Shown piece by piece: positions 29,596-64,000 of a DNA stretch of 64,000 nucleotides (the first letter of the stretch is position 1; each line of letters starts with the position of its first letter). The notes beneath the pieces are model-generated. The model saw only the letters and a program-made list of their open reading frames with translations, searched no databases and was not told the origin of the DNA. Origin of the DNA: a virus. Taxonomy: Duplodnaviria > Caudoviricetes. Both the position numbers and the translations under genes were made by a program. Location: IMG/VR virus record IMGVR_UViG_3300021256_000078, positions 31,238-95,237 of that record; one strand, given 5' to 3'.

Positions 29596-29952
29596 TTATT
29601 CGTCAACGAGAACCTGATCGTCAAGAACATCCTTCACATTGACAAACTTAATGTCGCTGGCATATGCATGATCGTTTGCATCCAGCACTCTCACCTGAAC
29701 GGCCGCAACAGAATTGTACTTGCCGACCGAGAACGTGTTGGCTTCCTCCTGGGTAAGACGCAGGGATCCCTTGTAGATTATGCGTTCATCTTCAGTTTCC
29801 GTGGTGAAGGTGAGATCCGCTTCGGTCTTCTCAAACACCACGTTTCCGTTCTGAGAGTAGGTGATCAGGATTTTCTTGTAGGTTGCAGGATCGTCCGGGA
29901 AAGTAAAAGTATGCAGTGGTGTAGTTGCACGAAACATGGCGTTTACCTCCAT
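29596..29952 (-). CDS. BppU-like baseplate protein
   Basis: RATTP..F, LTQEE, VQVRV; precedes the fibre gene. Confidence 0.6.
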   Translation of the reverse strand: MEVNAMFRATTPLHTFTFPDDPATYKKILITYSQNGNVVFEKTEADLTFTTETEDERIIYKGSLRLTQEEANTFSVGKYNSVAAVQVRVLDANDHAYASDIKFVNVKDVLDDQVLVDE

Positions 29953-29956
29953 TAAT

Positions 29957-31561
29957 TTAGTTTGCGTTTATTTCCAAAAGCTTTTTCCAGGTTTCAAGGT
30001 CCACAATTCCGTTCGCCTGAAGTCCAAAATGCTTTTGAAAATCTGTTATTTTTTGCTGCATTTCCTTGCCGAAGATGCCGGTCACAACAATTGTATAGCC
30101 CCAGCAAAGAAGTGCCGCCTGGGCGAGTTTCACATCGGCCCCCTCATCTTCCATTTTAATTTCACGAATCTGAATGACCTTGCGTGGAACTCCAGTGTCA
30201 GGTTCGGTTTCCAGTTCAGTTGTGGAGGACTCTGGTTTTTTGAGAATCTCATTAAGAACCTTTCTGGTGTCGTCGCCGACTTCTCCGTCAACCGGCTCAA
30301 GGTGATGCTGCCTTTGAAACTTCATGACCGCACGCTTTGTGTTATCGCCGTAGTCTCCGTCAGCGCCATCAGGACCGACATCATAACCCATTTTCAGAAG
30401 ATCCTTCTGAAGCTGTCGGACATCTTCTCCTATGCAGCCGAGTTTCAGAATTCGCTCGCCCGATGCCGGCTGGTCAACGTCGAATGCCGTATTGTCGTCC
30501 AGACTTTCCACAAGAGCCCAGTTTGGTCTGCCATAACCGATAATGTTACTCGAGTTAATCGGATAGGTACGCCTTGCCACCATGTCGGACGTGTTGCCCT
30601 CAATCGTTGTGACGGTTCCATTTTGAACAGACTCGACCATTCCTGTATGACTGTATTCTCCCGGCGCATAGGTGAAAAAGATCTGGTCGCCAGGCTGAGG
30701 ATTGCTCGTATACCAGGCTCCGTTCTGCTTATAGTATTGCGCTGAATAAAGACATCCGGCTCCAGCAGAACGAAGCGGCTGATAGAGCATACGTCTTCCT
30801 ATGTCCGGTCCAAAGCATGTGACAAAGCACCAGTCATAGGCAACATCGCAGTAGGGATAGCCGTTTTTGCCGCCGTTATAAAAGTTTTTGAGTTTATCGA
30901 GATCTCTGGCGTACTTCGTCCAGTTCCCGGCTCCGGCATTCGCGGTTTTATCATCAAGCTGCGAATTGGAAGCTTTTTCGCAATAGCCAACTTCGGAACG
31001 TGCAAGATTAAGAACCGCATTCACGGCTTCCTGTTTTGTCATACTGCTCGTCCCTCCCGTATCGAGATTTTTGAATCGTTCATAGAATTGTTCAGAAGAT
31101 GCATAACGGATTGGTTTCTGCCGGTCTTTGCCGTCCGGATTTTCCCATTTGTCCAGCAGCTGCCAGCTGAGGTCCGCCAGGTCATGGCTAGTTGTAACAA
31201 GCCGCCACTGTACCGGGAAGTTGTGCTGCATTTCCCAAAGCAGAAAAGCAATCTGCGTTTCCGAATCTCCGATGGACTTTCCTCGTGCCCGGCAGAAATC
31301 ATACAGGTTCCCCTTGCGGTCCGGAAAAGTCCACTGAGCATAACCGTAACCGATTCCATCATACATGAACTGGTGTCGGGTGATCAGTCCGCTGTCAACC
31401 TGACTTGTGTAAGCAGCATCATTTCTGCCCTTGGAATCTTCTGCGTTGTTAGAAAGAAAGACGCCTTCATGCTGAATCTGTCCGAGTACAGCACAGGCGC
31501 CTTCAATTGTCATACCGGCTTTTCGAAAAGTTCGGTACATATGTTCCTGGATGGTCATCAT
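29957..31561 (-). CDS. endolysin: phage-tail-lysozyme domain, CHAP domain and two PG-binding domains
   Basis: GQIQHEG..GYGYAQWT; YPYCD..HTGMV..TIEGNT; DGDYGDNT..AV..FQ. Confidence 0.9.
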   Translation of the reverse strand: MMTIQEHMYRTFRKAGMTIEGACAVLGQIQHEGVFLSNNAEDSKGRNDAAYTSQVDSGLITRHQFMYDGIGYGYAQWTFPDRKGNLYDFCRARGKSIGDSETQIAFLLWEMQHNFPVQWRLVTTSHDLADLSWQLLDKWENPDGKDRQKPIRYASSEQFYERFKNLDTGGTSSMTKQEAVNAVLNLARSEVGYCEKASNSQLDDKTANAGAGNWTKYARDLDKLKNFYNGGKNGYPYCDVAYDWCFVTCFGPDIGRRMLYQPLRSAGAGCLYSAQYYKQNGAWYTSNPQPGDQIFFTYAPGEYSHTGMVESVQNGTVTTIEGNTSDMVARRTYPINSSNIIGYGRPNWALVESLDDNTAFDVDQPASGERILKLGCIGEDVRQLQKDLLKMGYDVGPDGADGDYGDNTKRAVMKFQRQHHLEPVDGEVGDDTRKVLNEILKKPESSTTELETEPDTGVPRKVIQIREIKMEDEGADVKLAQAALLCWGYTIVVTGIFGKEMQQKITDFQKHFGLQANGIVDLETWKKLLEINAN

Positions 31562-35008: not shown

Positions 35009-37633
35009 TCACGCTCCAAACACTGCTTTTGCCTTTACATTTACCTTATGGTCTCCACCGGTCCAGTCTGCAGCTCCGATCTTAAGATCTCCATTGCTGT
35101 CTAACGTAAGCTCATGGGTATGCAGACTCATACTATATGCGGCTCCGTTCTTTCGGATGAAGTACGTGTCGCCATAATATCCTGCGGCGTCAACGTATCG
35201 ATCAATCAGAGCACGATCGGCCATGACTGTCATAGCGGCCACCACATCTGAATAGAACAGCTGCAGGTCCTCGTCCAGTTTCTTAAGTTCAATAGCCTTG
35301 TCCAGAATCTTGTTGCTGTTCACTGCTCCTGCGGCTATTTTTTCGGCAACAACCGCCCCATTTTGAATTTTCGCAACGGTAACCGCTCCATCCTTGACTT
35401 TGGTCTCCGTAACAGCTCCGTCTACCAGATGCCAGCCGGAAATACCGCCTGATGCGATATTCGAACCACCGACAGCGCCTGTCGCGATATGCTCTGATGT
35501 GATACTGTGACTTCCGATGCGTTTCGGAGGGATCATGCCGCGACGAAGTCTTGAGGCATCTTCCAGGCTTGACCATTCAGAAGATGCTTTGGCGTTGCTG
35601 ACTTCGATTTCTGTACAGCGTTCTTTCAGTACGTCATAGGTGTAGCTCGTAACCTTCGCCTTAACATCGATTCCAAGCTTTGCAAACCGTACTGTAACAG
35701 CATCATACAGGCGAATATTCTCTTTAGCGATCGGATCCATATACGGACTGCTCATGATGTCGGCATAACTGACGGTCAAATCAATTGCCGGGATGCCGAT
35801 GTCGTTGATCAGGATCCATTCCTTTGCTTTTTTATTGAGATACTCTGCCTTGATGTTCCTCTGCAGTTCTTCCGGAGTTTCTGCAAAAAAGTATTCACTC
35901 AGGTCAAGAGGCTGAATCTTTTGCTGTCCGTTTGGCAGGCTCTCGCATCCTTCAGCATACTGAACCGTTCCATACACGTACTTTTCTTCATCCGTATAGC
36001 TTTCGGTTACATAATAAACGCCGCCTGCTGTCGGATTTCTAACGACACTATAGCTATAACCGCTGATAACATAATACGTCGGAGGTGTGTAGCCTTTAGC
36101 TGGATCCGCAACTCCGAAATCAAAGTAAGAAATATCTGCTTCGATAAATGAACCCAGGGTTGGAGAAGTGACGTAATATGTCTTGGTTCGGTCATAGTGC
36201 TTATCTGTCGTGGCGGTATACTCAGTAACGGTCTGCTCCCAGTATCTGATTCCGGTCTTAAAACCAAGGTCTTCCTGACCGATAACAGGCACATAGGTAA
36301 CCTCACCGACTGGTTCCTGAGTCTCTTCATCATATTCCTGCAATTCACTTTCGATGTAATAAGTTTTCTGCCAATTATAATGCTCATCCTGCGTGACTGC
36401 AGAGGCCTCAGGCGCATCATAATAGGTTACTCCAGATCTGAAATCGAAATCACTCAATACACATTTTCGATACTTTCCATTTTCTAAAATATAATAGACG
36501 GTACCACTTTCAGGATCGATATCCGGAGTCTCTGTATATACAGGATCAGTCGCCTCATAATAGACAATGTTCCGATAGTCTGGATCACAGAAGTCCAGGT
36601 CCCATATTTCAAGAGCCCGATATCCCCCATCATTGACGTAAAACGACTGTTCGGTTGTATAATGTTCAATTGATGACGGTTTCGGAGAATAGCTTGGCAC
36701 CCTTGCGTAGTACGTGACGCCGCTTTCAAAAGTATCTCCGGTGTACAGCGTATAGTTCGTTGATTCTGAATTTCCGCGAATGGTTCCCTTCCAATACGGG
36801 ATTACACCGGTAATCATTTCGGAAATATTCTTTTCCTGGGTGAGATCAATAAGATCGATGCCATACTCAATCACCACACCGCGGTCTGCTCCTCCGCTCT
36901 TTTGAAGCTGAACAGTGCAGTTATCGAAGATAATATCTCCGCCGTAAAAACCGAGCACACTGGAATCTCCATCCAGTAGCGCCGCCCGCAGGGATGTCGG
37001 TGTGTCGAGTGAAAAGCTTTCAATAGCGACCCAGTGACTCGGATTGAATTCTCCTTCCGCCGTCGGAATATCCTGGATGCACTGAAAAGTCGTAACACCT
37101 CCGACTGTGACGTAATCGCCCTTGGAATAAGTACCACGGTTGCTGTACGGTGAAATGTTATAGCCCGAAACTTTAAACGGAAACAGAGTATCGCTTCCGA
37201 CATGGATCAGATGATCCGCATCCAGCATGGTGGAAATGGCGGTCGACGGCATGAGGACATTCTTGAAGGTTTTCACCGGATAATTCCCAAGATCATAGGA
37301 AATATGCTGACAGTTTATCGTCGTCATCCCGTTGATGTTTTTCTCAATGCCGTAAATACGGAACATCTGATAACTTGACAGCCAGTTATTCGCCTTAGCC
37401 GCAATGATCCTTCCGATCGTCAATTCGGAATATAAAGTTCCGTTCGGCGGATACTGAAGCGAAAGTTCAAATTCACCTTCCGAGTTCTGCGTAACCTGGC
37501 ACTCTGTCGCTTCCATCAGGTCCCCAATGCCATGGGTTTGGAGCAGGGATTGAAGGGCGAAGTAGCCCGCCATCGTTTTCGTATCGAATTTATTGATATT
37601 GGATTCGAACAGAATTGGAATCATGAGCAGCAT
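35009..37633 (-). CDS. Tal / tail endopeptidase-like hub protein
   Basis: GEFELSLQYP, QMFRIY, YGIDL, LYDAVTV; follows Dit. Confidence 0.8.
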   Translation of the reverse strand: MLLMIPILFESNINKFDTKTMAGYFALQSLLQTHGIGDLMEATECQVTQNSEGEFELSLQYPPNGTLYSELTIGRIIAAKANNWLSSYQMFRIYGIEKNINGMTTINCQHISYDLGNYPVKTFKNVLMPSTAISTMLDADHLIHVGSDTLFPFKVSGYNISPYSNRGTYSKGDYVTVGGVTTFQCIQDIPTAEGEFNPSHWVAIESFSLDTPTSLRAALLDGDSSVLGFYGGDIIFDNCTVQLQKSGGADRGVVIEYGIDLIDLTQEKNISEMITGVIPYWKGTIRGNSESTNYTLYTGDTFESGVTYYARVPSYSPKPSSIEHYTTEQSFYVNDGGYRALEIWDLDFCDPDYRNIVYYEATDPVYTETPDIDPESGTVYYILENGKYRKCVLSDFDFRSGVTYYDAPEASAVTQDEHYNWQKTYYIESELQEYDEETQEPVGEVTYVPVIGQEDLGFKTGIRYWEQTVTEYTATTDKHYDRTKTYYVTSPTLGSFIEADISYFDFGVADPAKGYTPPTYYVISGYSYSVVRNPTAGGVYYVTESYTDEEKYVYGTVQYAEGCESLPNGQQKIQPLDLSEYFFAETPEELQRNIKAEYLNKKAKEWILINDIGIPAIDLTVSYADIMSSPYMDPIAKENIRLYDAVTVRFAKLGIDVKAKVTSYTYDVLKERCTEIEVSNAKASSEWSSLEDASRLRRGMIPPKRIGSHSITSEHIATGAVGGSNIASGGISGWHLVDGAVTETKVKDGAVTVAKIQNGAVVAEKIAAGAVNSNKILDKAIELKKLDEDLQLFYSDVVAAMTVMADRALIDRYVDAAGYYGDTYFIRKNGAAYSMSLHTHELTLDSNGDLKIGAADWTGGDHKVNVKAKAVFGA

Positions 37634-53162: not shown

Positions 53163-53786
53163 TCAGTCAACCGTAACATGCTGACGGCGCTTGTCTGCCC
53201 GCACAGTATCGAGATAGGTTTGTTCATACATGGCCCGTCCGCGATCGCCTTTTGTCATGGGCGTAAAGACCGTCACAACCGGAGCCGCTGTCAGAGTACT
53301 GAGTGCTACACTTCCTACATTAGCAAGGGCAATGCCGACCATTTGCCCGCCAGTCATAACTTTCTCATTAATTCTGCCGTTTTTGTCGTACTTAATGTCG
53401 GAAATGGCCTCATCGCCGTACTTTTTCTTAAGCTTTGCAGCATGAGCTTTGACTGCTTTATTGGACAGATCGGCCTGCTCATGAAGCTTTCGATTGGTCT
53501 CTTTCTCATAGTTCAGACGGTCCAGACTCTGCGTGTCGAGTTTTCGATCGTATCGCTTCTGGGCTCTGGCGAGCCGTTTGTCAGAATATCTTGAGGCCCG
53601 TTCGGCATCGGTAGCATAGCGTCCTTTTTCGAAAGCTTCCTTATTGTCTGCTTTATATTCAGACCTGGCCCGTTTCTTTCCTTCCGATGTCAGAGACCCA
53701 TCGGCGTTCTGAAACCGTCTGACACCCCACTTCTGACCTCGGATACCGTAATGCGCCAGATAGTTCTGATTGTCATATTGAGGCAT
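53163..53786 (-). CDS. H.GI.GQKWG-motif protein
   Basis: LAHYGIRGQKWGVRRFQNADGSLT. Confidence 0.75.
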   Translation of the reverse strand: MPQYDNQNYLAHYGIRGQKWGVRRFQNADGSLTSEGKKRARSEYKADNKEAFEKGRYATDAERASRYSDKRLARAQKRYDRKLDTQSLDRLNYEKETNRKLHEQADLSNKAVKAHAAKLKKKYGDEAISDIKYDKNGRINEKVMTGGQMVGIALANVGSVALSTLTAAPVVTVFTPMTKGDRGRAMYEQTYLDTVRADKRRQHVTVD

Positions 53787-54656: not shown

Positions 54657-56402
54657 TCATTCGAACATGTCGCGGTTAGCCTTATACGCAATATAGGCGT
54701 CCATCAGGGCCGAGACATTATCGATTTTTTCCTGTCTGCGCTTTTTCATCAGTTTCCGGTTTCCGTTGGTGTCTTCGATCGCAACACAGTGTGCCATGCA
54801 GAATGACATAATCTCTTCGTCAAACAACAATTCCCGTCGTTCTGCAAAGATTTTCAGTTCTCCAAGTGGCACAGATTCGGTCTTTACTCCCTGCGGCACT
54901 TTTTCAATTCCGTACGGCCCGTTATCGATCTCCCACCTGTTCACGAATACGGCTGCATTATACGGGTCATAACCGAGGCACATGACGTTGTATTTTCTAT
55001 CGTCAATGAATCGATACAGGTCCTCATATACTTCGCCGATATCCAGAACTGTGGAATCCATAACGACCATGGAACCCTCGCGGATGAACTTATCGTATTC
55101 CCCGCGAAGAGCCGGAGGAAGTTTCTTATAAGTAATCCCGGTAATATAGCTTCTTGCCTTAATACCGAAGCCGACACCCGGAATTGGAAACAGAAATGTA
55201 AATGCACAGAAATCGTCGCCGAGGGAAAGGTCTGCCCCAAGTGCGCAGGTCATTCCATTGAAGTTCTGCATGCGGTGGGGTTTGGTTTCCTCGTACGTAA
55301 AGAAATAGGTATAGCCCTCCATGGCCAGGCCGAAACGCTTCGCCAGAATATCATTCCGGTTGGACGGCGACTTCTCGCTGCGTTCCTTTTCGTCCTTATA
55401 AGTTTCATAACTGACAGTCGCTCCAATGTTCGGATTAGCCTTCACCCAGAGGGACGGGATCTCAAGCTCCCGATCACTGTCCAGTTTATACCACCAGATC
55501 GACACATGCGGATTGTAGTACTCCCCGTGCAGAATCTTCTTGAGCTCGATTTTGATGTCATCGCCAGCTCCGTTTCGAACTGTTCCTTCAGAGCTTGTCG
55601 CGATAATCAGCCAGTTGTCAACCTTGGCAGCTCCCTGCTCAAGAGCTCCGATGACATCCTCACGGATATCGCCCGAGAGCCATTCGTCTACGCTGGCATA
55701 CTTACATCTTGCGCCCTGAAGCTTGTCAATTCGCATCGGGCGGGATTCAAGAAGCGATTCGCTGATGAAATTCTCAATGCCTTTTTTCGTTGAGGCAATT
55801 TTAACTCTGTCCGCTTTGTTTCCGGTCGTGTTCTGCAGCGATCCTTCCGTCATGAATTTCATGACCGGACCTTTTGCTTTCGAGATGGCAACCTTAAGCG
55901 GCAGAAGTGTTTCTTCGGACTGTCTGATTGTAGGGGCGGTCACAATCTGATCGGTGGTTTCCGGATCCATTACCAGACCGTAAGCCTGCTGACAGGTGCA
56001 GTATAGACTTTTGGCGGCTCCGCGTCCGACAATCAGATACTGTTTGTTCCGAAGACGCTTTTTGATCTTTCGGAGTTCGAAGTGTCCTCCCGGTCCATAC
56101 TGATTCGGAACCCATACGGATCGTTCCGTAAAGTAAAACCAGCTCAGAACGTCTTCAGCCCACAGTTTAAAGGAGTCTAGAAGAATCAGATCCCCGCCGT
56201 CGGTAAGGGTCAGTTCCTTTTCGCAGAAATTGATCCATCCGTCCATAACCTGATCATCATAATAGAATCTGGGATCCAGAATCAGATTGTCGATGAGATT
56301 CATCTGGTCGGCGATCTCCCTGCAGACGGGAATCTCTCTTCGCAGTACGGCGTCTCGAAACGCGCCGTAGTATTTCGGAGTGGCGGTATTCGATAACGAC
56401 AT
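54657..56402 (-). CDS. terL: terminase large subunit
   Basis: GRGAAKS Walker A, SVDEW Walker B, GADLS, YDPYN, KIDNVSALMDA. Confidence 0.95.
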   Translation of the reverse strand: MSLSNTATPKYYGAFRDAVLRREIPVCREIADQMNLIDNLILDPRFYYDDQVMDGWINFCEKELTLTDGGDLILLDSFKLWAEDVLSWFYFTERSVWVPNQYGPGGHFELRKIKKRLRNKQYLIVGRGAAKSLYCTCQQAYGLVMDPETTDQIVTAPTIRQSEETLLPLKVAISKAKGPVMKFMTEGSLQNTTGNKADRVKIASTKKGIENFISESLLESRPMRIDKLQGARCKYASVDEWLSGDIREDVIGALEQGAAKVDNWLIIATSSEGTVRNGAGDDIKIELKKILHGEYYNPHVSIWWYKLDSDRELEIPSLWVKANPNIGATVSYETYKDEKERSEKSPSNRNDILAKRFGLAMEGYTYFFTYEETKPHRMQNFNGMTCALGADLSLGDDFCAFTFLFPIPGVGFGIKARSYITGITYKKLPPALRGEYDKFIREGSMVVMDSTVLDIGEVYEDLYRFIDDRKYNVMCLGYDPYNAAVFVNRWEIDNGPYGIEKVPQGVKTESVPLGELKIFAERRELLFDEEIMSFCMAHCVAIEDTNGNRKLMKKRRQEKIDNVSALMDAYIAYKANRDMFE

Positions 56403-56430: not shown

Positions 56431-57606
56431 TTAGCGATCATCGCGGGTTTCATCCATGTAATCTTCGAAATCATTTGGAAACCAGCTTTGAGCGTCTGCC
56501 CAACGTCCCTGATTAATAAGATCCTTAAAGAACTCGTTCTTGGTCCAGGCCCCGGTGTACTCGCGTCTTCCACCTTTGTTTCCTTTGTTACCCTTTCGTT
56601 GAGCTTCGGCCTCGCGCTCGGCTTTCCCTTGCGTGGTTCTGTCATGAACGCTGTCGCTGTTCCTCTGATAATTGAGCCAGTCTCGAACAGCATCAGGATG
56701 CAAATTCGGAAGATTCCGTTCAACTTCATCAGGATTCATGTGATTGGCAAGCCAAATTCTGCTTTCATCTTTGTAGTCCTGATCTTCTCGACGCTTGCGA
56801 TCTTCGAATTCTTTATTTTGTTGTGCTTCTTCTTCCCTGGCTTCCTTACGTGCCCGTTTGTTTTTATTATCAGCACTGTAATAATCTAAACGGTCTTTAG
56901 TACTGAGAACATCGCCGATTGCACGCATGTCATCTACGGAAAGCTCTCCCTTATTATACATGTTGATGAGTTCATCACCATTTTTATTGGAAAGCTTTCT
57001 ATAAAGATCACTACGATCTGCCTTCTCACCGAACCTTTGCATTTTCTTGCCATTCGGGAATACTCCCATGTCAACAAATGCATTATTAACTTCCGCAATA
57101 TTGTTATACACATTCTTGCCGGTTTGATAAAAACCGTTTACTGTTTGAAAGGCAGTCGATGCATTCTTCATCATACCTTGCAGAGTGTTCAAATTTCTCT
57201 GATTCTCAGCCTGTGAGATATCCTTCAATCTTTTGTCAAACTGAACGTTCCGCATGATTTCATCCACTTCGGCAGGTTTCAGCTCCTTGCGGTGCCTATA
57301 CATCTGCTCCGGATGATCGCGGTAATAGTCCATCCGCTTCTGTTTTTCAGCGGCTTCTTTTTCGGCTTTTTTTGCCTCAGCTTTTTCAGCTCGTTTGCTC
57401 TTTGCCATATCGACGAGCTTTTTAACGCTGCTCTCTTTCTTGTTTCCTTTTGGATTCAGAGAGTAACCGAGGTGCTTACGACCCTCAGCCGTGAGAGAGC
57501 CGTCAAGGTTCTGGTATCTTCGCTGTCCCCACTTCTGGCCCTTGATTCCATGATGGGACAGGTAGTTATCATAATGAGCTGTCACAGCGTCTGCCCTCAC
57601 TTTCAT
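56431..57606 (-). CDS. H.GI.GQKWG-motif protein
   Basis: LSHHGIKGQKWGQRRYQNLDGSLT. Confidence 0.75.
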   Translation of the reverse strand: MKVRADAVTAHYDNYLSHHGIKGQKWGQRRYQNLDGSLTAEGRKHLGYSLNPKGNKKESSVKKLVDMAKSKRAEKAEAKKAEKEAAEKQKRMDYYRDHPEQMYRHRKELKPAEVDEIMRNVQFDKRLKDISQAENQRNLNTLQGMMKNASTAFQTVNGFYQTGKNVYNNIAEVNNAFVDMGVFPNGKKMQRFGEKADRSDLYRKLSNKNGDELINMYNKGELSVDDMRAIGDVLSTKDRLDYYSADNKNKRARKEAREEEAQQNKEFEDRKRREDQDYKDESRIWLANHMNPDEVERNLPNLHPDAVRDWLNYQRNSDSVHDRTTQGKAEREAEAQRKGNKGNKGGRREYTGAWTKNEFFKDLINQGRWADAQSWFPNDFEDYMDETRDDR

Positions 57607-57672: not shown

Positions 57673-58266
57673 TTAATCGGACATGCCTGCGGCACGAATC
57701 ATTCTGATGTACTTCCTGAGTTCCTGACGTTCATAGTCAGATTCGCTGGAGTCCATCATGTGTTCAAGCTGCTCAACTGCTCTGTCGCTTACGCTGTGGC
57801 GACTGTATCCACGATCTCTCATGGGCATATCCCCGCCGTAGTAATACGGATCGCAGTAGCTGGCATTCATATGCTGAACCGGATACCCCGGAAGATCGGA
57901 GTAACCGTTCATCATGGAGTTTCCGTCGTGTGATGCATACCATCCGCCGATACCATACCGCGGTCTTCCGGAACCGCCATTTTCGTAAGAGCCATTGGAA
58001 CCGTTCTGTCCATAGGATCTTCCGTTTGCGGTATTCCAGCCATAGCTTCCATGGCGGCGGTAAGAGGATCTCTCAGAATACATGTCATCAGTATTCTTGT
58101 AATCCCCTGCCTCACAGTCTTCAATCTCTTCGCAAAGTGTTTTACGAAGCTCCATCCCGTCAAGTGCAGCTTTGGTCTCGGCGGGAGTCAGATCGCCCTT
58201 TTGGAAGAGCTCTTCAAGGCATCTTTCGACCGTAGTCTTTGCCTTTTTCATGGATTCAACTTCCAT
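57673..58266 (-). CDS. Tyr/Gly/Ser-rich low-complexity protein
   Basis: Helical termini around an SYG-rich core. Confidence 0.75.
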   Translation of the reverse strand: MEVESMKKAKTTVERCLEELFQKGDLTPAETKAALDGMELRKTLCEEIEDCEAGDYKNTDDMYSERSSYRRHGSYGWNTANGRSYGQNGSNGSYENGGSGRPRYGIGGWYASHDGNSMMNGYSDLPGYPVQHMNASYCDPYYYGGDMPMRDRGYSRHSVSDRAVEQLEHMMDSSESDYERQELRKYIRMIRAAGMSD

Positions 58267-58284
58267 TTTGAATTTCCTCCCGCT

Positions 58285-58737
58285 TTATTTCTTAATGACG
58301 AGATTTGCATTTGAGACCAGAATCGGAATCTCGCTGATGTTTCGGATGCTGAAGCTTTCGCAGCAGCAGAGCCAGATTGGAACGTTGGTCGCCCTCGAGA
58401 TATTAAAAAACTGCTCAACCGCGGCAGGGGTCACCGTCATAGTGGTTCCGGCAAGTGTGGCACCTTCAAGCGCAAAGGCCACGCTGATTGGACCGACTGC
58501 TTCTCCTGTCGGAATGGCAATGTTCGCACCGAAGTCAACCATATAGTCGACTGACGGATAGCCCATGCACGGACACCGACGCATGAAAGTGTTTCCGTTC
58601 GAGCCCTTAATCAGGAAGAGTCCACTATCCTCACGATGGAGGATCAGGCCCTTGTAGCAAGGACGATTGGTTTCCGTAAAGAGGATGGACTCTCCTGGAT
58701 TGACCGTCTGTACAGCCACGCTAGTCCATTCAGCCAT
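58285..58737 (-). CDS. beta-sandwich protein, possibly BclA-CTD/C1q-like
   Basis: QTVNPGESILF...YMVDFGANI...CCCESFSIRN...NANLVI pattern. Confidence 0.55.
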   Translation of the reverse strand: MAEWTSVAVQTVNPGESILFTETNRPCYKGLILHREDSGLFLIKGSNGNTFMRRCPCMGYPSVDYMVDFGANIAIPTGEAVGPISVAFALEGATLAGTTMTVTPAAVEQFFNISRATNVPIWLCCCESFSIRNISEIPILVSNANLVIKK

Positions 58738-58749
58738 CGTGGCACCTCC

Positions 58750-59574
58750 TTATGCTCCGCAGGCACAACCGAAGTTCTGAGTGCAGCAGTTCGGGTTCTG
58801 AACAACGTAAGCGGGACGAGGAGTCGGCAGAACATACTGCTCAACCTCATTCGCAAGCGCCCTCTGACCGGCCATGATCTGGGCAGTCTGATCATTCTGG
58901 GAAGCTCTGCGGTTGGCCTCATTGAGGGCCGCCTGAAGCTCCGCAATCTGAGCATTCTTTCCGTCCAGCTCAAGCTGGCAGATCTTGCTCATCACGCCGT
59001 CAATCTTCGCACTGAAGGAATCCACCAGTCTCTGCGTATTGGCATTGTCGGCCATCAGGAGGTCACGGAGGCCTTCGTTCATAGCGGTTCTGTCTGCGCA
59101 GTTTTCGGTGGCCACGGTATACTTCAGATCGGCAAGTCCTGCGCGATTTTCGCAACAGCAATTCTGAAGATTCATGGCAAGGCCGTTCATCGCGGCAGTG
59201 GATGCGGCCTGGTTGGTGTTCAGGGTCTGGAGGATGTTCATATTGGCATTGCAGCGGGAAACTTCCGCATTGGCAAAGCCAGTAGAAACACCAGTGCTGA
59301 TTCCGTTCAGAGCGCCCATAATGGCGGACTGATCGAACCCGCGCTGAACTTCATTGCCCTGCTGGTTGCCCATCATGCCGCCCATCATCCAGGGCATCAT
59401 GCCTCCACCGAAGCCGAAACCGTTGCCCCAGCCATTATTGGTGAACAGCAGAAGAATGATCAGCCACCAGAGACCGTTGTTTCCAAAGCCGAAACCGTCA
59501 TTTGCGCCTCCGCCGTACATCGGCGCTACAGGCATCGTGAAACTGGTACCATTTGTATTCTCGGAATACGACAT
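58750..59574 (-). CDS. Gly-rich, hydrophobic-segment, Cys-cluster coiled-coil protein
   Basis: GLWWLIILLLF flanked by GFG repeats; long heptads; CCC and terminal CC..CAC. Confidence 0.8.
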   Translation of the reverse strand: MSYSENTNGTSFTMPVAPMYGGGANDGFGFGNNGLWWLIILLLFTNNGWGNGFGFGGGMMPWMMGGMMGNQQGNEVQRGFDQSAIMGALNGISTGVSTGFANAEVSRCNANMNILQTLNTNQAASTAAMNGLAMNLQNCCCENRAGLADLKYTVATENCADRTAMNEGLRDLLMADNANTQRLVDSFSAKIDGVMSKICQLELDGKNAQIAELQAALNEANRRASQNDQTAQIMAGQRALANEVEQYVLPTPRPAYVVQNPNCCTQNFGCACGA

Positions 59575-59888
59575 CTTTCATCTTGTCCTTTCGCAAGTAG
59601 TCCGGTGTTTGTGAGGTTCGTTATTCAGCTCTCTAGAAAAGCTTTAAGAACCATCACAAACTTTTCGTTTATACTTTTTATTCAAAAACGGATGAGGTTA
59701 GCTACTCCTCACCCGCTTCGAACCGCTGTAAAACTTCAGCCCGGCAAAATACCGGACTGTCAGTTAATCGAAATACATTGCATTGACGCTCAGACTAAAA
59801 ATAAAAGAAATTCCGCCAGAAATGCGAATCCTCTGTATTTTCATAAAACTGGCGTCGGGGTTTCTTCCTGGCGGAATTCAGGCAAATA

Positions 59889-60128
59889 TCAGTGCTGCTC
59901 CTCGGAAGGAAACTCTTCCTCCATCATGGCCTGCTGTTCTTTGTAATACTGTGTAGAACTGAGCTTGAGGACAGCACCCAGGAACAGGTCGATCGCCGAC
60001 AGAGTCCCTACAATCTCTTCGCCATATGGAAATCCCCAGATCTTTGAAAGCGCCAGATACAGAGAGCCAAGGGCCGGCAGCAGAATCTGTGCGACAAATT
60101 TCAAAACATCATAGACTTTATTACTCAT
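59889..60128 (-). CDS. holin (Dp-1-like)
   Basis: MSNKVYDVLKFVAQILLPALG.LY..L..IWGFPY; two TM helices. Confidence 0.88.
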   Translation of the reverse strand: MSNKVYDVLKFVAQILLPALGSLYLALSKIWGFPYGEEIVGTLSAIDLFLGAVLKLSSTQYYKEQQAMMEEEFPSEEQH

Positions 60129-60631
60129 GACAATTCTCCTTCCTTCAGGAAACTATTTTCCCGAATGCATTTTGAGTGCAGACGCCTTATTTCATTGATG
60201 GCATCTGTTATTTCACCATTCTTCAGGTTGTTCTTTTCGATATACTCTTCATACTGATCGCATTGCTTTAAAACAAACCGGAACTGTTCTCTAGTATGCT
60301 TCCGATCATTCATGCAGGAATTACAGAATTCCAAAATATCTCGTCTGGTATCCTGCAATGACTTGATCTCCGATTCGGCAATGTGATCAGATAGCTGCGT
60401 CTGGACCTTGTCGACTTTTTCATCGAGTGCTTTGATTTCGCCTCGAACCGTATCAAGTTTCGTATCAATCGCACTGTTAAACTGTGAGCCCAGAAATTTA
60501 ATGAGGCTCCGCCATGGGTTCCACTTAAACTCTGGGCGCCAATCAATGAAGACCGACACCACAAACGCCACAATACCCCAGAATCCTAAATCTGAGATTC
60601 CGAGGCTGTGCAGAAAATCAAAAAAGCTCAT
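60125..60631 (-). CDS. holin-associated membrane protein
   Basis: TM helix, KWNPW, coiled coil, RRDILEF...YE.Y..KNG; coupled to the holin. Confidence 0.7.
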   Translation of the reverse strand: MSFFDFLHSLGISDLGFWGIVAFVVSVFIDWRPEFKWNPWRSLIKFLGSQFNSAIDTKLDTVRGEIKALDEKVDKVQTQLSDHIAESEIKSLQDTRRDILEFCNSCMNDRKHTREQFRFVLKQCDQYEEYIEKNNLKNGEITDAINEIRRLHSKCIRENSFLKEGELS

Positions 60632-60842
60632 AAAGCTTACCCTCCGTGAAACCCTGCGGATTTCGTCGTGTTTAAAATTTCATAAACAAAGAGCATGCCG
60701 TCTTCCGCACCGAAACTGTCTTCGGCCGTTTTCTTGACATGCTCTGTTTAATAAAACCCTTCTTTTGTGCATGCCGAAAGGCAGAGGCTGAAGGGATCTA
60801 CTAAGACCGCTATGGGGCCCCTGTGGTCCGTTCGTTCAAAGT

Positions 60843-61388
60843 TTAGATGCCACGGATCGCTTCCACGACTTCACCTGGAATCTCAATTTCCTGTCTTGGG
60901 AAGTCTGTGCAGTAGAACACGCCTAGCTTCTCAACGAGAATGTCACGTGCAATGTTTTCGGCAAGCGTGGACCGGAAACCATGAACATCCCCGATGTTAT
61001 CGGTGTAGTACTGCAGGACCTCATTTTCAAATACGACGTAGGTGAACTCGAACATAGACTGCTTCCCGAGAACTTCACTGCGCAGATAATGCGGATTCTC
61101 AAAAAATGCCCGCTCGTAAATTGTCGCCATAAGATCATTAGGCTCATGATACGAATCCGGTTTGGAATTGGCCGGAATAACGGTAACCTTGATCTTGGTC
61201 TTACCGAAGACCTTTTCCGGAATGAGGATCTGACTAATTGCATCCGCCTTTACATAGTCCTCAACGTAAAGCTTGATTTCATGCTTGTCTTCATCGAAAA
61301 GCACAACAATCTGCGGATCTTCACCGAACAGCGTGTTGATTTCATTGTACAGTTCGACCCATGGTGAAACTAAACCGAGTTTTGCCAT
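60843..61388 (-). CDS. hypothetical phage protein
   Basis: GGAGG RBS before MAKLG. Confidence 0.7.
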   Translation of the reverse strand: MAKLGLVSPWVELYNEINTLFGEDPQIVVLFDEDKHEIKLYVEDYVKADAISQILIPEKVFGKTKIKVTVIPANSKPDSYHEPNDLMATIYERAFFENPHYLRSEVLGKQSMFEFTYVVFENEVLQYYTDNIGDVHGFRSTLAENIARDILVEKLGVFYCTDFPRQEIEIPGEVVEAIRGI

Positions 61389-61413
61389 AATGTTTTCCTC
61401 CTGTATACGAGAT

Positions 61414-61635
61414 TCAGGATCTGTTTCTTCCAGTAATCTGGTCCGCGATGGCGGAGAACTGCTGAAACTGTTCCATGGACATCTCATTATTCTGAATCTT
61501 CTGTCGAACAATTTGTTCTGGGGTCATGCCCTGCGGAATCGATCTTGCGAGATTCATAAGCGCCTGCTGGAAGTTCATCTGACCTCCATTTTGATTTTTC
61601 TGAAACGATTGAAAAAGTGGATTCATGTTCGGCAC
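61414..61635 (-). CDS. Gln/Met-rich small protein
   Basis: GAGGT RBS, coupled ORF. Confidence 0.7.
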   Translation of the reverse strand: MPNMNPLFQSFQKNQNGGQMNFQQALMNLARSIPQGMTPEQIVRQKIQNNEMSMEQFQQFSAIADQITGRNRS

Positions 61636-61636
61636 C

Positions 61637-62137
61637 TCACTTCAAGAGATCGGACAGCTTGTCGGTCATAAGGTTTACTGCCTTTGCAAGCTGATCGAAT
61701 TCTTCACGAGAAACGACACTGGGAACCGTTTGGAGATTCTCCTGAACCGATTGCTGCGGTGTCGTCTGCGGATCCTGTTGCTGTACTGGCGCCTGTGGCT
61801 GAACTTGCTGCTGAGGAACCTGGTCTTCAAACGTATAGCTCAGTCTCCGAATCGGCTGAGTAACACCGTTGAGATCAGTTTCCCGGATGTAGAACATGTT
61901 CTTATTTTTATCGCCAAAGAGCTGCTGCCAACCTCTGCCACTTGGATAGTTGTTGATCTCCTGCTCATTGTTTACCCAGATAATATTGCTCTGAGGTGTA
62001 AACGACTGAGGTGTCGGTGTTGTATAGCCTATTCCATTTCCAACTCCGGTTCCAGTTCCGGTTCCGGTTCCAGTTCCATATCCGCCATATCCGTAAAGGT
62101 TCTGATAAGGACCAAATCCACCAAATAACCCTGCCAT
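61637..62137 (-). CDS. Gly/Gln-rich protein with an IIWV...FYIRETD core
   Basis: GT repeats, Q/P-rich linker, VSREEFDQL helix. Confidence 0.7.
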   Translation of the reverse strand: MAGLFGGFGPYQNLYGYGGYGTGTGTGTGTGVGNGIGYTTPTPQSFTPQSNIIWVNNEQEINNYPSGRGWQQLFGDKNKNMFYIRETDLNGVTQPIRRLSYTFEDQVPQQQVQPQAPVQQQDPQTTPQQSVQENLQTVPSVVSREEFDQLAKAVNLMTDKLSDLLK

Positions 62138-62140
62138 TGT

Positions 62141-62521
62141 TTATTCTCCCTTCATCCAGTAATATAATGGTAACTCATTTCCGGAATCCCACGTGTCGTA
62201 ATAGTCGCCGTCTACAACTGTCACCACGTGCTGATCCAGAGCAAGCAGAAATCTTCCTGTCGGATGATCCATGCAGAAGTCTTTCACCGTATAGAAGCCG
62301 AGTTTGCTGTCCGGTATGAACTTTCTGACGTAACCTTTTCGAACAAGATATGCGCCCCAGGTTGCATTTCCTGACGGCATGTCTTTCCGGAGAAATCCTT
62401 CAAAGGAAGTGCCTGCATAAACAGTATCCCATTCCTGATCAGTAAGACGACAGATGGCGCGAATCGTACAGTCGCCAACAAATCTTCCTGCAGGATTGGG
62501 ATTGTAGAATCTGTAGCTCAT
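62141..62521 (-). CDS. putative papain-like peptidase
   Basis: GDCTIRAI...HVVTVVDG..YDTWDS gives a possible Cys-His-Asp triad. Confidence 0.55.
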   Translation of the reverse strand: MSYRFYNPNPAGRFVGDCTIRAICRLTDQEWDTVYAGTSFEGFLRKDMPSGNATWGAYLVRKGYVRKFIPDSKLGFYTVKDFCMDHPTGRFLLALDQHVVTVVDGDYYDTWDSGNELPLYYWMKGE

Positions 62522-62549: not shown

Positions 62550-62942
62550 TCAATATCCAAACCGTGCTGTTTCCATCAGCGTCCATTCCAGCATGTTGAG
62601 CTGTTCCTGAATGGCATTTGCCATGGAGCTTGACTGCGGAGTGTCAAATATCATTCGGACTTTCAGGCAGATATACTGTTTGATCTCTTCCTGATAACCT
62701 TCTGTCATGAACTCATCCCAGGTATTTTCTTCACCGGTAATATGATACGGCGTTTCCGGACCAACACCAATCTGGCATAGCCTGGAGAACGCCGCATTAA
62801 TATCCATAATGAGATCGTTGTCAAACACATCGTACTGTGCGGACGGCCCGATCCTTTGTCGAACAGTTTTTAGAATTGAAGCGATCGGAGCCTTATCGGT
62901 TCCTTGCGTTTCCGTTGTCGTAGTCGTAGTTTCGTCAGGCAT
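62550..62942 (-). CDS. head-tail adaptor-like protein
   Basis: SILKTV..IG..FDNDL..IN...LKVRMIFD.P. Confidence 0.6.
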   Translation of the reverse strand: MPDETTTTTTETQGTDKAPIASILKTVRQRIGPSAQYDVFDNDLIMDINAAFSRLCQIGVGPETPYHITGEENTWDEFMTEGYQEEIKQYICLKVRMIFDTPQSSSMANAIQEQLNMLEWTLMETARFGY

Positions 62943-63006
62943 TTTGAGGCTCCTTTCTTCCACCAAAGAGTGGACTATTAATTACAGATCTTTAACCTGA
63001 ATTGAA

Positions 63007-63793: not shown

Positions 63794-64000
63794 GGGCTTT
63801 TCCTCGGTTCTGATACCTTTTAGGTGGATATGACATGCGTTTTATTAATGGACGGAAAGGAGAACCCATGGCAGGAAGGTGATGACTGGAAGGCAATCAA
63901 GCTGGTAATGAGCGAACCCAGCTGTTCATGGAATAATGTCATACCCACTTAAAAAGTATCAGGACCGTTTGGAATATAAACCCCCGGGGAAAATATAAAG

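Follow-up and report, generated by a model that had tools for sequence, protein, structure and literature searches.

A fixed-order six-gene cassette in the phages of gut and rumen anaerobes and its possible role in forming a rod-and-knob appendage

What do six small genes accomplish that travel together in the late operon of a tailed phage, ahead of the gene for the large terminase, and do they act as one system? The question is raised by a 64,000-nucleotide (nt) stretch of viral DNA (Duplodnaviria; Caudoviricetes), which we call the window and which makes up the last 64 kb of the 95,237-bp virus record IMGVR_UViG_3300021256_000078. The original prediction, made from the sequence alone, described positions 57673-62521 of the window as a module of six genes rich in Cys, Gly and Tyr, whose products might form a self-assembling structure. 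All six open reading frames (ORFs) were found on the minus strand at the positions given there, and the compositions ascribed to the six proteins agreed with the computed ones. The span does contain the six-gene set, but three further genes, not listed there and outside the conserved set, also lie inside it, between the third and the fourth gene. Here we number the genes 1 to 6 in the direction of transcription and conclude that they constitute a cassette of fixed order, which thousands of gut and rumen phages possess.

The six ORFs are genuine protein-coding genes. Among close relatives, the third codon position is 2-3 times more variable than the first two in all six of them (for gene 4, the variability by codon position is 0.19/0.14/0.47), thus indicating that real proteins are encoded. 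A 436-aa ORF on the plus strand (58636-59946), which runs antisense to gene 4 and has similar antisense counterparts in 28 related loci, was considered as a gene and rejected as an artefact, since the codon-position statistics assign coding to the minus strand, that is, to gene 4. Gene-finding programs with a preference for long ORFs may therefore annotate the gene 4 locus wrongly.

For the analysis of linkage, we sampled 80 viral contigs fetched via the 274-amino acid (aa) protein of gene 4 and 80 contigs from bacterial genomes fetched via the 150-aa protein of gene 5; the ORFs of these contigs were clustered, profile hidden Markov models (HMMs) were built from the clusters, and the cassettes were then counted. 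The results clearly showed all six families together in 67 of the 80 viral loci and in 52 of the 80 bacterial-genome loci; the incomplete loci mostly held one end of the cassette only, as expected if the contig stops inside it. Counted singly in the viral loci, gene 1 was present in 73, gene 2 in 75, gene 3 in 77 and gene 6 in 75. Order and strand were the same in 115 of the 119 complete copies, the median span being 2.9 kb, and the two halves were swapped in three loci. Such joint occurrence greatly exceeds what chance would give. This strengthens the earlier claim that the six genes form one co-occurring module; a failure of the genes to co-occur across phages, which the original prediction had named as the outcome speaking against it, was looked for and clearly not observed. 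The median junction gaps in 117 cassettes were 2, −8, 13 and 10 nt within genes 1-3 and genes 4-6, and the only wide junction was that from gene 3 to gene 4 (75 nt). In the window, gene 2 starts 3 nt past the stop of gene 1, and gene 3 starts 1 nt past the stop of gene 2. The cassette is composed of two tightly, translationally coupled sub-operons, one comprising genes 1-3 and the other genes 4-6.

Furthermore, the families are large. In a collection of 5.8 billion proteins, gene 4 has at least 7973 relatives (993 clusters at 50% identity), gene 1 at least 7788 and gene 5 1044, and the relatives of these three genes are all unnamed. None of the six cassette genes is represented in Pfam; searches of Pfam, NCBIfam, PHROGs and PADLOC returned nothing informative for the six proteins, the PHROG matches being only to families of unknown function, and PDB sequence-profile searches with five family alignments gave no significant match. 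A literature search did not find the cassette described in any paper, and it ranks among the most widespread unexplained gene sets of the phages of gut anaerobes. It has remained complete despite its moves from one unrelated phage backbone to another, and in monoderm as well as diderm hosts, and so must confer a general advantage on the phages. Knowing its role would annotate thousands of viral genomes and might reveal a new way in which phages attach to, leave or persist around their gut hosts. Cultured carriers are at hand, namely phage Ceridwen and the prophages of Vescimonas fastidiosa MM35, Eubacterium ruminantium ATCC 17233 and Selenomonas sp. AE3005.

As for the proteins, gene 5 (58285-58737, minus strand) encodes a stand-alone protein of 150 aa, the knob, which we confidently assign, on the basis of its predicted structure, to the ten-stranded TNF/C1q-type jelly-roll β sandwiches. 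The AlphaFold2 single-chain model has a pLDDT of 90.7 and a predicted template modelling (pTM) score of 0.82. When compared with the PDB by Foldseek, it matched the C-terminal domain (CTD) of F-BclA (9h38, E 2.8e-7), ExsFA (7r1m, template modelling (TM) score 0.71), BxpB (8d02, TM 0.72) and BclA (1wck), the four matches ranging over E 2.8e-7 to 6e-6 and TM 0.62-0.72. The proposal that the 150-aa protein resembles the BclA-CTD/C1q β sandwich is thus borne out, and the closest folds are those of proteins capping fibres or docking fibre termini. Foldseek matches in BFVD included stand-alone phage proteins of 130-142 aa (TM up to 0.81) and many phage fibre tips. Residues Q10, C27, N72, A74, C125 and C126 are invariant in 74 sequences; the protein carries six Cys, among them the LCCCE motif, and matches phrog_20016. 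It has no match to a Pfam family at E <= 0.1, BclA_C included, and none in the PDB sequence-profile search.

Gene 4 (58750-59574, minus strand) encodes the 274-aa rod protein. In the AlphaFold2 model of the single chain, a disordered Gly-rich N-terminus and a short helix (35-45) precede the helices 73-136 and 143-248, which amount to about 170 residues of long helix and are followed by an unstructured tail rich in Pro, Tyr and Cys; a CCC motif sits at the break between the two long helices. Both this model and the family alignment agree with the earlier description, in which a long coiled coil accompanies a hydrophobic segment flanked by Gly. Fold searches returned generic coiled coils only, a comparison with the named clusters of the ESM Atlas gave no usable match, and the protein matches phrog_16490. 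Nearly invariant are W37, G79, F80, C140, C141, E157, C159, R162, C199, P254 and Y256; the 10 Cys of the copy in the window include those of the NCCCEN motif and of the CC..GCAC tail, and across the family the tail keeps P254 and Y256 together with a median of four cysteines. The uninterrupted hydrophobic run has a median length of 11 aa (range 3-16) and a median KD19 hydropathy of 1.52, its flanks are 60-73% Gly or Asn, and Lys and Arg are absent before the run in 81% of the members and from the 25 aa after it in 70%. Since a canonical single-pass anchor is taken to have about 18 or more hydrophobic residues and a positively charged flank, the sequence suggests a short, uncharged element that is atypical as a membrane anchor.

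Ahead of the glycines, the rod bears a conserved peptide in one of two forms, (M/F)xMPVxP(M/Y/F) or (L/M)(S/T)xAD(V/I)AAV, which is present in about 78% of the full-length copies and reads FTMPVAPMYGG in the window. Three leads concerning the rod were set aside. The tracking of knob subtype by this N-terminal motif (the ARY-type knob goes with MPV.P 24 to 1) probably reflects shared descent and was not used; a supposed likeness of the N-terminus to the tiny YjcZ membrane proteins of sporulation found no NCBIfam match; and the 'outer capsid protein/viral fiber' of Bacteroides phage C3_41T2LP matches the helical part only and has no knob gene next to it.

Gene 1 (62141-62521, minus strand; 126 aa) encodes a putative small, papain-like Cys-His-Asp enzyme, probably peptidase-like. 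Residues D17, C18, R21, H98 and D109 are invariant in 34 aligned sequences, D112 is kept in at least 90%, and the Cys, His and Asp stand in the papain-like order; the Cys/His/Asp set announced for this protein is thus confirmed, as C18, H98 and D109. The protein matches phrog_3754, a family of unknown function, and its neighbours in the ESM Atlas bear the automatic names 'Peptidase C39-like' or 'Endopeptidase', no more than a lead. In common with peptidase C39, the double-glycine leader peptidase domain of bacteriocin exporters, the protein is small and papain-like, its Cys lying near residue 18 and its His/Asp near residues 98-112, and adjacent genes specify proteins whose N-termini are Gly-rich and carry a conserved leader-like peptide. 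In contrast to peptidase C39, it is not fused to an ABC transporter and does not match PF03412, whose HMM had no match over the whole genome at E <= 10; likewise, the pre-glycine motif of gene 4 differs from the canonical LSxxELxxIxGG. The conserved N-terminal peptide of gene 4, which is followed by glycines, could be a target of the gene 1 enzyme.

Relatives of gene 1 also occur without the other five genes, namely in Tsamsa-like Bacillus phages (Bacillus phage Tsamsa gp15), in Geobacillus phage GBK2 (GBK2_35, which precedes the recombinase genes in the early region) and in Lak phage records, thus indicating that the enzyme family is broader than the cassette. These lone relatives, together with the internal mosaicism of the cassette (one locus, L022, is 58% identical in gene 4 vs 82% in gene 5), could mean that the six genes have no joint function and are unrelated small cargo genes that co-travel through tight linkage. 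Order and coupling persist, however, down to 30-45% identity and across many backbones, which mere linkage would fail to maintain, and we consider such a chance association very unlikely.

The remaining three genes encode low-complexity proteins, each with a small conserved core. The gene 2 product (61637-62137, minus strand; 166 aa; Q 13%, G 12%) has a G/Q/P-rich N-terminus, the core WV.G...YP..PG....D....Y.K..D..G.P and a C-terminal helix. The gene 3 product (61414-61635, minus strand; 73 aa; Q 19%, N 12%, M 10%) combines an N-terminal NP(L/F)F with the conserved motif V..ll.sG.m.Q.Qf. In the gene 6 product (57673-58266, minus strand; 197 aa; G 11%, S 10%, Y 9%), an S/Y/G/R-rich middle with the motif YS...SY.RGR...GRY.S...YS.HS..DR lies between helical N- and C-terminal parts. 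Genes 2 and 6 have no family or PDB match. Cysteine makes up 3.5, 4.0 and 3.3% of the products of genes 1, 4 and 5, and 0%, 0% and 0.8% of those of genes 2, 3 and 6. A signal peptide was found on none of the cassette proteins.

How might these proteins work together? A stand-alone TNF-fold protein encoded beside a rod with proline-rich peptides, the cysteine clusters shared by the two, the lack of signal peptides, late expression and a Cys-His-Asp enzyme lead us to favour, tentatively and as a possibility rather than a probability, a rod-plus-knob appendage that is made late, assembled in the cytoplasm and exposed at lysis. The structure predictions cover single chains, and it is from the whole of these features that we infer a contact between rod and knob, processing, a location and an adhesive role. 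According to this model, the six genes would be one self-contained accessory cassette transcribed with the late genes. The 274-aa protein would oligomerise via its long helices to give the rod, whose hydrophobic end flanked by Gly and Asn might either dip into the inner face of the membrane or bundle several rods. A conserved terminal peptide of the rod would dock onto a trimer of the 150-aa knob; the candidates are the N-terminal MPV.P[MYF] or SxAD[IV]AAV and the C-terminal tail L.P.P.PAY...CC..GCGC. We liken such docking to the entry of the proline-rich leader of BclA/F-Anchor into ExsF/BxpB, since ExsF binds a proline-rich leader in a cleft of its trimer (PMC12357932). The clustered cysteines of rod and knob might lock the contact through a metal or a disulfide, the 126-aa enzyme would trim or otherwise process a Gly-rich N-terminus, much as residues 1-19 of BclA are removed by proteolysis (PMC12357932), and the three low-complexity proteins might serve as assembly helpers or as a matrix. 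As no component has a signal peptide, the outside would be reached only at lysis, and afterwards the product might be found on the progeny virions or as free particles, with the knob as the binding head.

Several observations weigh against such an appendage. Virion fibres do not usually involve low-complexity proteins rich in G, Q, S and Y or a hydrophobic element, and the hopping of the cassette between unrelated phage backbones leaves no obvious fixed attachment site on a virion. No ORF in the 160 loci matches two cassette families, so that no rod-knob fusion was found. Gene 1 has no curated-family match in Pfam, NCBIfam or the PDB profiles and no match to a peptidase HMM, and its relatives may stand alone, as described above. 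The cysteine counts of rod tail and knob do correlate, in favour of the model, but the correlation is weak (rho 0.32, kinship being ignored). Finally, disulfide cross-links, which the original prediction had proposed, are doubtful, because the cytoplasm and the gut are reducing, the proteins lack signal peptides and the hosts are strict anaerobes.

A bolder version of the rod-and-knob model, which we regard as rather unlikely though worth stating, is that the cassette is a portable kit for a cysteine-locked appendage, a viral counterpart of the nap and appendage systems of endospores (BclA-ExsF, ENA), which decorates virions or forms an extracellular matrix and binds host or gut glycans. If true, thousands of uncultured phages would bear an appendage of a new class. 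The BclA/F-Anchor-ExsF system of the Bacillus cereus-group exosporium (ExsFA, BxpB; PDB 1wck, 9h38, 7r1m, 8d02, 9h3d) provides the best fold matches to gene 5. In both cases, a stand-alone TNF/C1q-fold protein of about 150 aa is encoded beside a fibrous one whose terminal peptides are conserved and rich in proline, cysteine motifs of the CC type occur, and signal peptides are absent; assembly in the cytoplasm followed by release through lysis is a further likeness, proposed for the cassette, and so is proteolytic trimming, which is known for BclA (PMC12357932) and only proposed here. There are differences as well. The rod of the cassette is α-helical, whereas the stalk of BclA is collagen-like (GXY); the cassette proteins match neither BclA_C nor the exosporium leader (TIGR03720; NCBIfam, E <= 0.1); and the cassette adds three low-complexity genes and a dedicated enzyme. 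The exosporium anchoring system is limited to endospore formers and is made in the mother cell. The cassette, in contrast, is encoded by phages within a late lytic operon and is also found in hosts that do not sporulate.

These differences bear directly on the suggestion of the original prediction that the module makes a spore-coat or exosporium-like decoration for the spores of lysogens. The nearness of the knob fold to exosporium proteins, the Cys-rich and Tyr/Gly/Ser-rich compositions and the presence of SpoIVA in 16 of 29 carrier genomes are all consistent with it. However, SpoIVA is absent from the other 13, including two cultured isolates, Selenomonas sp. AE3005 and Eubacterium ruminantium ATCC 17233 (the other 11 are subject to the incompleteness of metagenome-assembled genomes, MAGs), Selenomonadaceae and Butyrivibrio are among the hosts, and neither BclA_C nor the exosporium leader nor any family of sporulation proteins was matched. 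The absence of SpoIVA from these carriers and the occurrence of the cassette in both monoderm and diderm hosts speak against the spore role, as do the position in the late operon and the presence of the cassette in the lytic phage Ceridwen. The cassette thus occurs independently of sporulation, and a function on spores appears extremely improbable.

The genes inserted between the two halves of the cassette direct attention to lysis instead. Three of them lie in the window on the minus strand. The first (60843-61391, 182 aa; its start may be the ATG at 61391 or the TTG at 61511) stands outside the conserved cassette, has no family match and has no relative in any of 83 loci. The second (60125-60631, 168 aa) encodes an N-terminal membrane segment (maximal KD19 hydropathy 1.95, at residue 11) and a helical domain, matches phrog_37604 and overlaps with its stop the start of the third gene, to whose product it is a partner. 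The third (59889-60128, 79 aa) is, by its sequence, a Dp-1 family holin (PF16938, E 3.2e-26, 91.9 bits vs a cut-off of 25; also phrog_881, a holin family). It is followed, ahead of gene 4, by a structured spacer of 314 nt (59575-59888, minus strand) with a minimum free energy of −103.2 kcal/mol (z = −5.64); none of 100 shuffled sequences folded as well. The spacer contains two long terminator-like hairpins, each followed by a U run, and transcription may therefore stop after the holin and then restart, or read through, into genes 4-6. A similar terminator-like hairpin is present at the same junction in the close relatives L004, L005 and L015.

The junction of gene 3 and gene 4 is a hot spot of insertion, used by 11 of the 14 expanded cassettes; the insertion of the window lies there too. 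In the close relative L016 the insert comprises a GH25 endolysin, a homologue of the 168-aa protein and a Dp-1 holin. L020 has a BppU_N protein and another of 1105 aa at this place, whereas SGNH/GDSL esterase proteins are found in L046 and L074 and a DUF4886 protein in L022. The acceptance of fibre-type genes of the BppU_N and SGNH-esterase kinds recalls the C1q/TNF-like knobs of phage fibre tips and of the collagen-like fibres of giant viruses, which share their fold with gene 5; gene 5 differs from them in being a separate 150-aa protein with invariant Cys, encoded outside the tail module and not as the C-terminal domain of a fibre.

Holin or endolysin genes lie within 3 kb of at least 51 of the 119 complete cassettes (34 upstream, 10 downstream and 7 inside), a lower bound, as the census used a limited number of HMMs, themselves derived from these loci. 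This proximity, and the nesting of a holin with its partner gene inside the cassette in the window, would fit an accessory of lysis or egress at the cytoplasmic membrane, where the hydrophobic element of the rod would insert and its helical hairpin with the Cys-rich turn would act in the manner of a spanin, a class I fusion protein or a holin regulator, completing or timing the disruption of the envelope. The architecture of the rod, an uncharged Gly-rich hydrophobic segment, a helix, a CCC turn and a second helix, points the same way, and so do profile matches to the fusion-peptide region of influenza HA2. The latter, however, are below the threshold (best E 0.17-1 vs HA2 chains) and hence not significant, and Foldseek gave no match to HA2. 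A Gly-rich hydrophobic segment, a pair of long helices with cysteines where they turn, and lysis genes as neighbours do make the rod similar to spanins and class I fusion proteins; it differs from them in lacking a second membrane anchor, in place of which it has a Cys-rich tail, or a lipoprotein partner, and in occurring in monoderm hosts as well. As the hosts are both monoderm and diderm, an outer-membrane spanin is not a fitting description. The alternative put forward in the original prediction, a membrane-inserting fusion spike, likewise failed to gain support: the similarity to HA2 (E 0.07-1) is sub-threshold, a C-terminal anchor is missing and the phage is a tailed one.

Further points speak against a lysis accessory. 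The core of the hydrophobic element spans only about 11 residues and has no positive flank, known lysis systems give no part to a TNF-like knob or to three low-complexity proteins, and the same hot spot takes the fibre-type genes mentioned above. In the window, the 534-aa endolysin (29957-31561; Phage_lysozyme2, CHAP and PG_binding_1 domains) lies 28 kb away from the cassette. Moreover, cargo of a general kind is taken up at the ends of late operons, and adjacency to lysis genes is therefore weak evidence. XepA of PBSX and YomS of SPbeta, in Bacillus subtilis, are accessory β-sandwich proteins encoded beside holin and endolysin. They are similar to the present case as uncharacterised β-rich accessory proteins of Firmicutes phage elements next to lysis genes and differ in being single genes and not a six-gene set; no sequence or fold link to them turned up in the searches described here. 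On balance, we hold a role in lysis or egress to be on the unlikely side. Apart from this, the Dp-1 holin and its overlapping partner (59889-60631) are 28 kb away from the only recognisable endolysin (29596-31561 with its neighbour), and the endolysin has an unannotated 118-aa neighbour of its own, so that the phage may possess two holin-type genes.

The surroundings of the cassette point to late expression. All genes of the region are on the minus strand, the order of transcription being a 124-aa ORF, a 185-aa ORF (which matches a family labelled HNH from its sequence and has no Pfam match), the head-tail connector (62550-62966; PF24829, E 1.7e-26), the cassette region, a DUF7211 protein (56431-57606) and the large terminase, TerL (54657-56402). 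In the window, the cassette thus lies between connector and TerL, with short gaps, in a late context; within this TerL lineage it is found at four junctions, namely before terS/HNH, between HNH and connector, between connector and TerL, and between TerL and portal. Scans for sigma-70 promoters and for terminators performed no better than on shuffled sequence, and Rfam gave no match in the 56-64 kb part of the window. An early motif derived from the early-gene array, TTCGWAA-N5-ACA-N4-CTATAG, has 17 sites in the window vs 0.8 expected; 16 are on the minus strand at 2303-22847, and the 17th, a weak one with three mismatches, is on the plus strand at 35460-35484. It has no site in the cassette region and no good copy in the late half (23000-64000), which indicates that the late half uses another kind of promoter.

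Elsewhere, the cassette may lie at the end of a prophage. In the cultured Vescimonas fastidiosa MM35, the tail is followed by holin, amidase and cassette, and then host genes begin; in many prophages the cassette is likewise the last block past the lysis genes, and an integrase adjoins it in at least 27 of the 119 loci. In addition, some copies have a small Sigma70_r4-like regulator of their own upstream: a 70-aa protein (L061:8669-8878, same position in L001 and L081) with a weak match (E 0.004) is encoded directly upstream of gene 1, and no such gene is present there in the window. One might therefore imagine a function on the side of the host cell, in which rod and knob, tethered to the inner face of the host membrane, block superinfection or alter the host, effects that are common among cargo genes at prophage ends. 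However, the cassette in the window is embedded in the late operon and lacks a promoter-like site of its own, no PADLOC model is matched by any of the six proteins at E <= 0.01, and known exclusion proteins are encoded by single small genes and not by six-gene sets. Besides, the cassette is carried by the cultured phage Ceridwen, which infects Butyrivibrio fibrisolvens and of which only lytic growth has been seen. Conversion or exclusion therefore seems improbable to us, and an appendage exposed at lysis is still the reading that we tentatively prefer.

The carrier genomes span 33-95 kb. The records are assigned mostly to Lachnospiraceae, Oscillospiraceae, Ruminococcus and Selenomonadaceae, with isolates of Eubacterium ruminantium and Selenomonas among them, so that the hosts include both monoderm and diderm Bacillota. 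A few carrier contigs are labelled Bacteroidales, Methanobrevibacter or Saccharibacteria, and host labels of MAGs can be binning errors.

Some minor observations concern the neighbourhood of TerL and the ends of the record. The DUF7211 protein downstream of the cassette (56431-57606) and the protein encoded at 53163-53786, which flank TerL, have a short DUF7211 N-terminal motif in common (E 1e-7 and 3e-7), their bodies being unrelated, and relatives of both recur beside TerL in related loci. No terminal direct repeat of 20 or more bases was found at the ends of the 95-kb record. The sequence CCCCCGGGG is present at both ends, about 10-35 bases from the end (window positions 63981-63989, and within the first 60 bases of the contig), and may relate to a packaging site beside the HNH gene.

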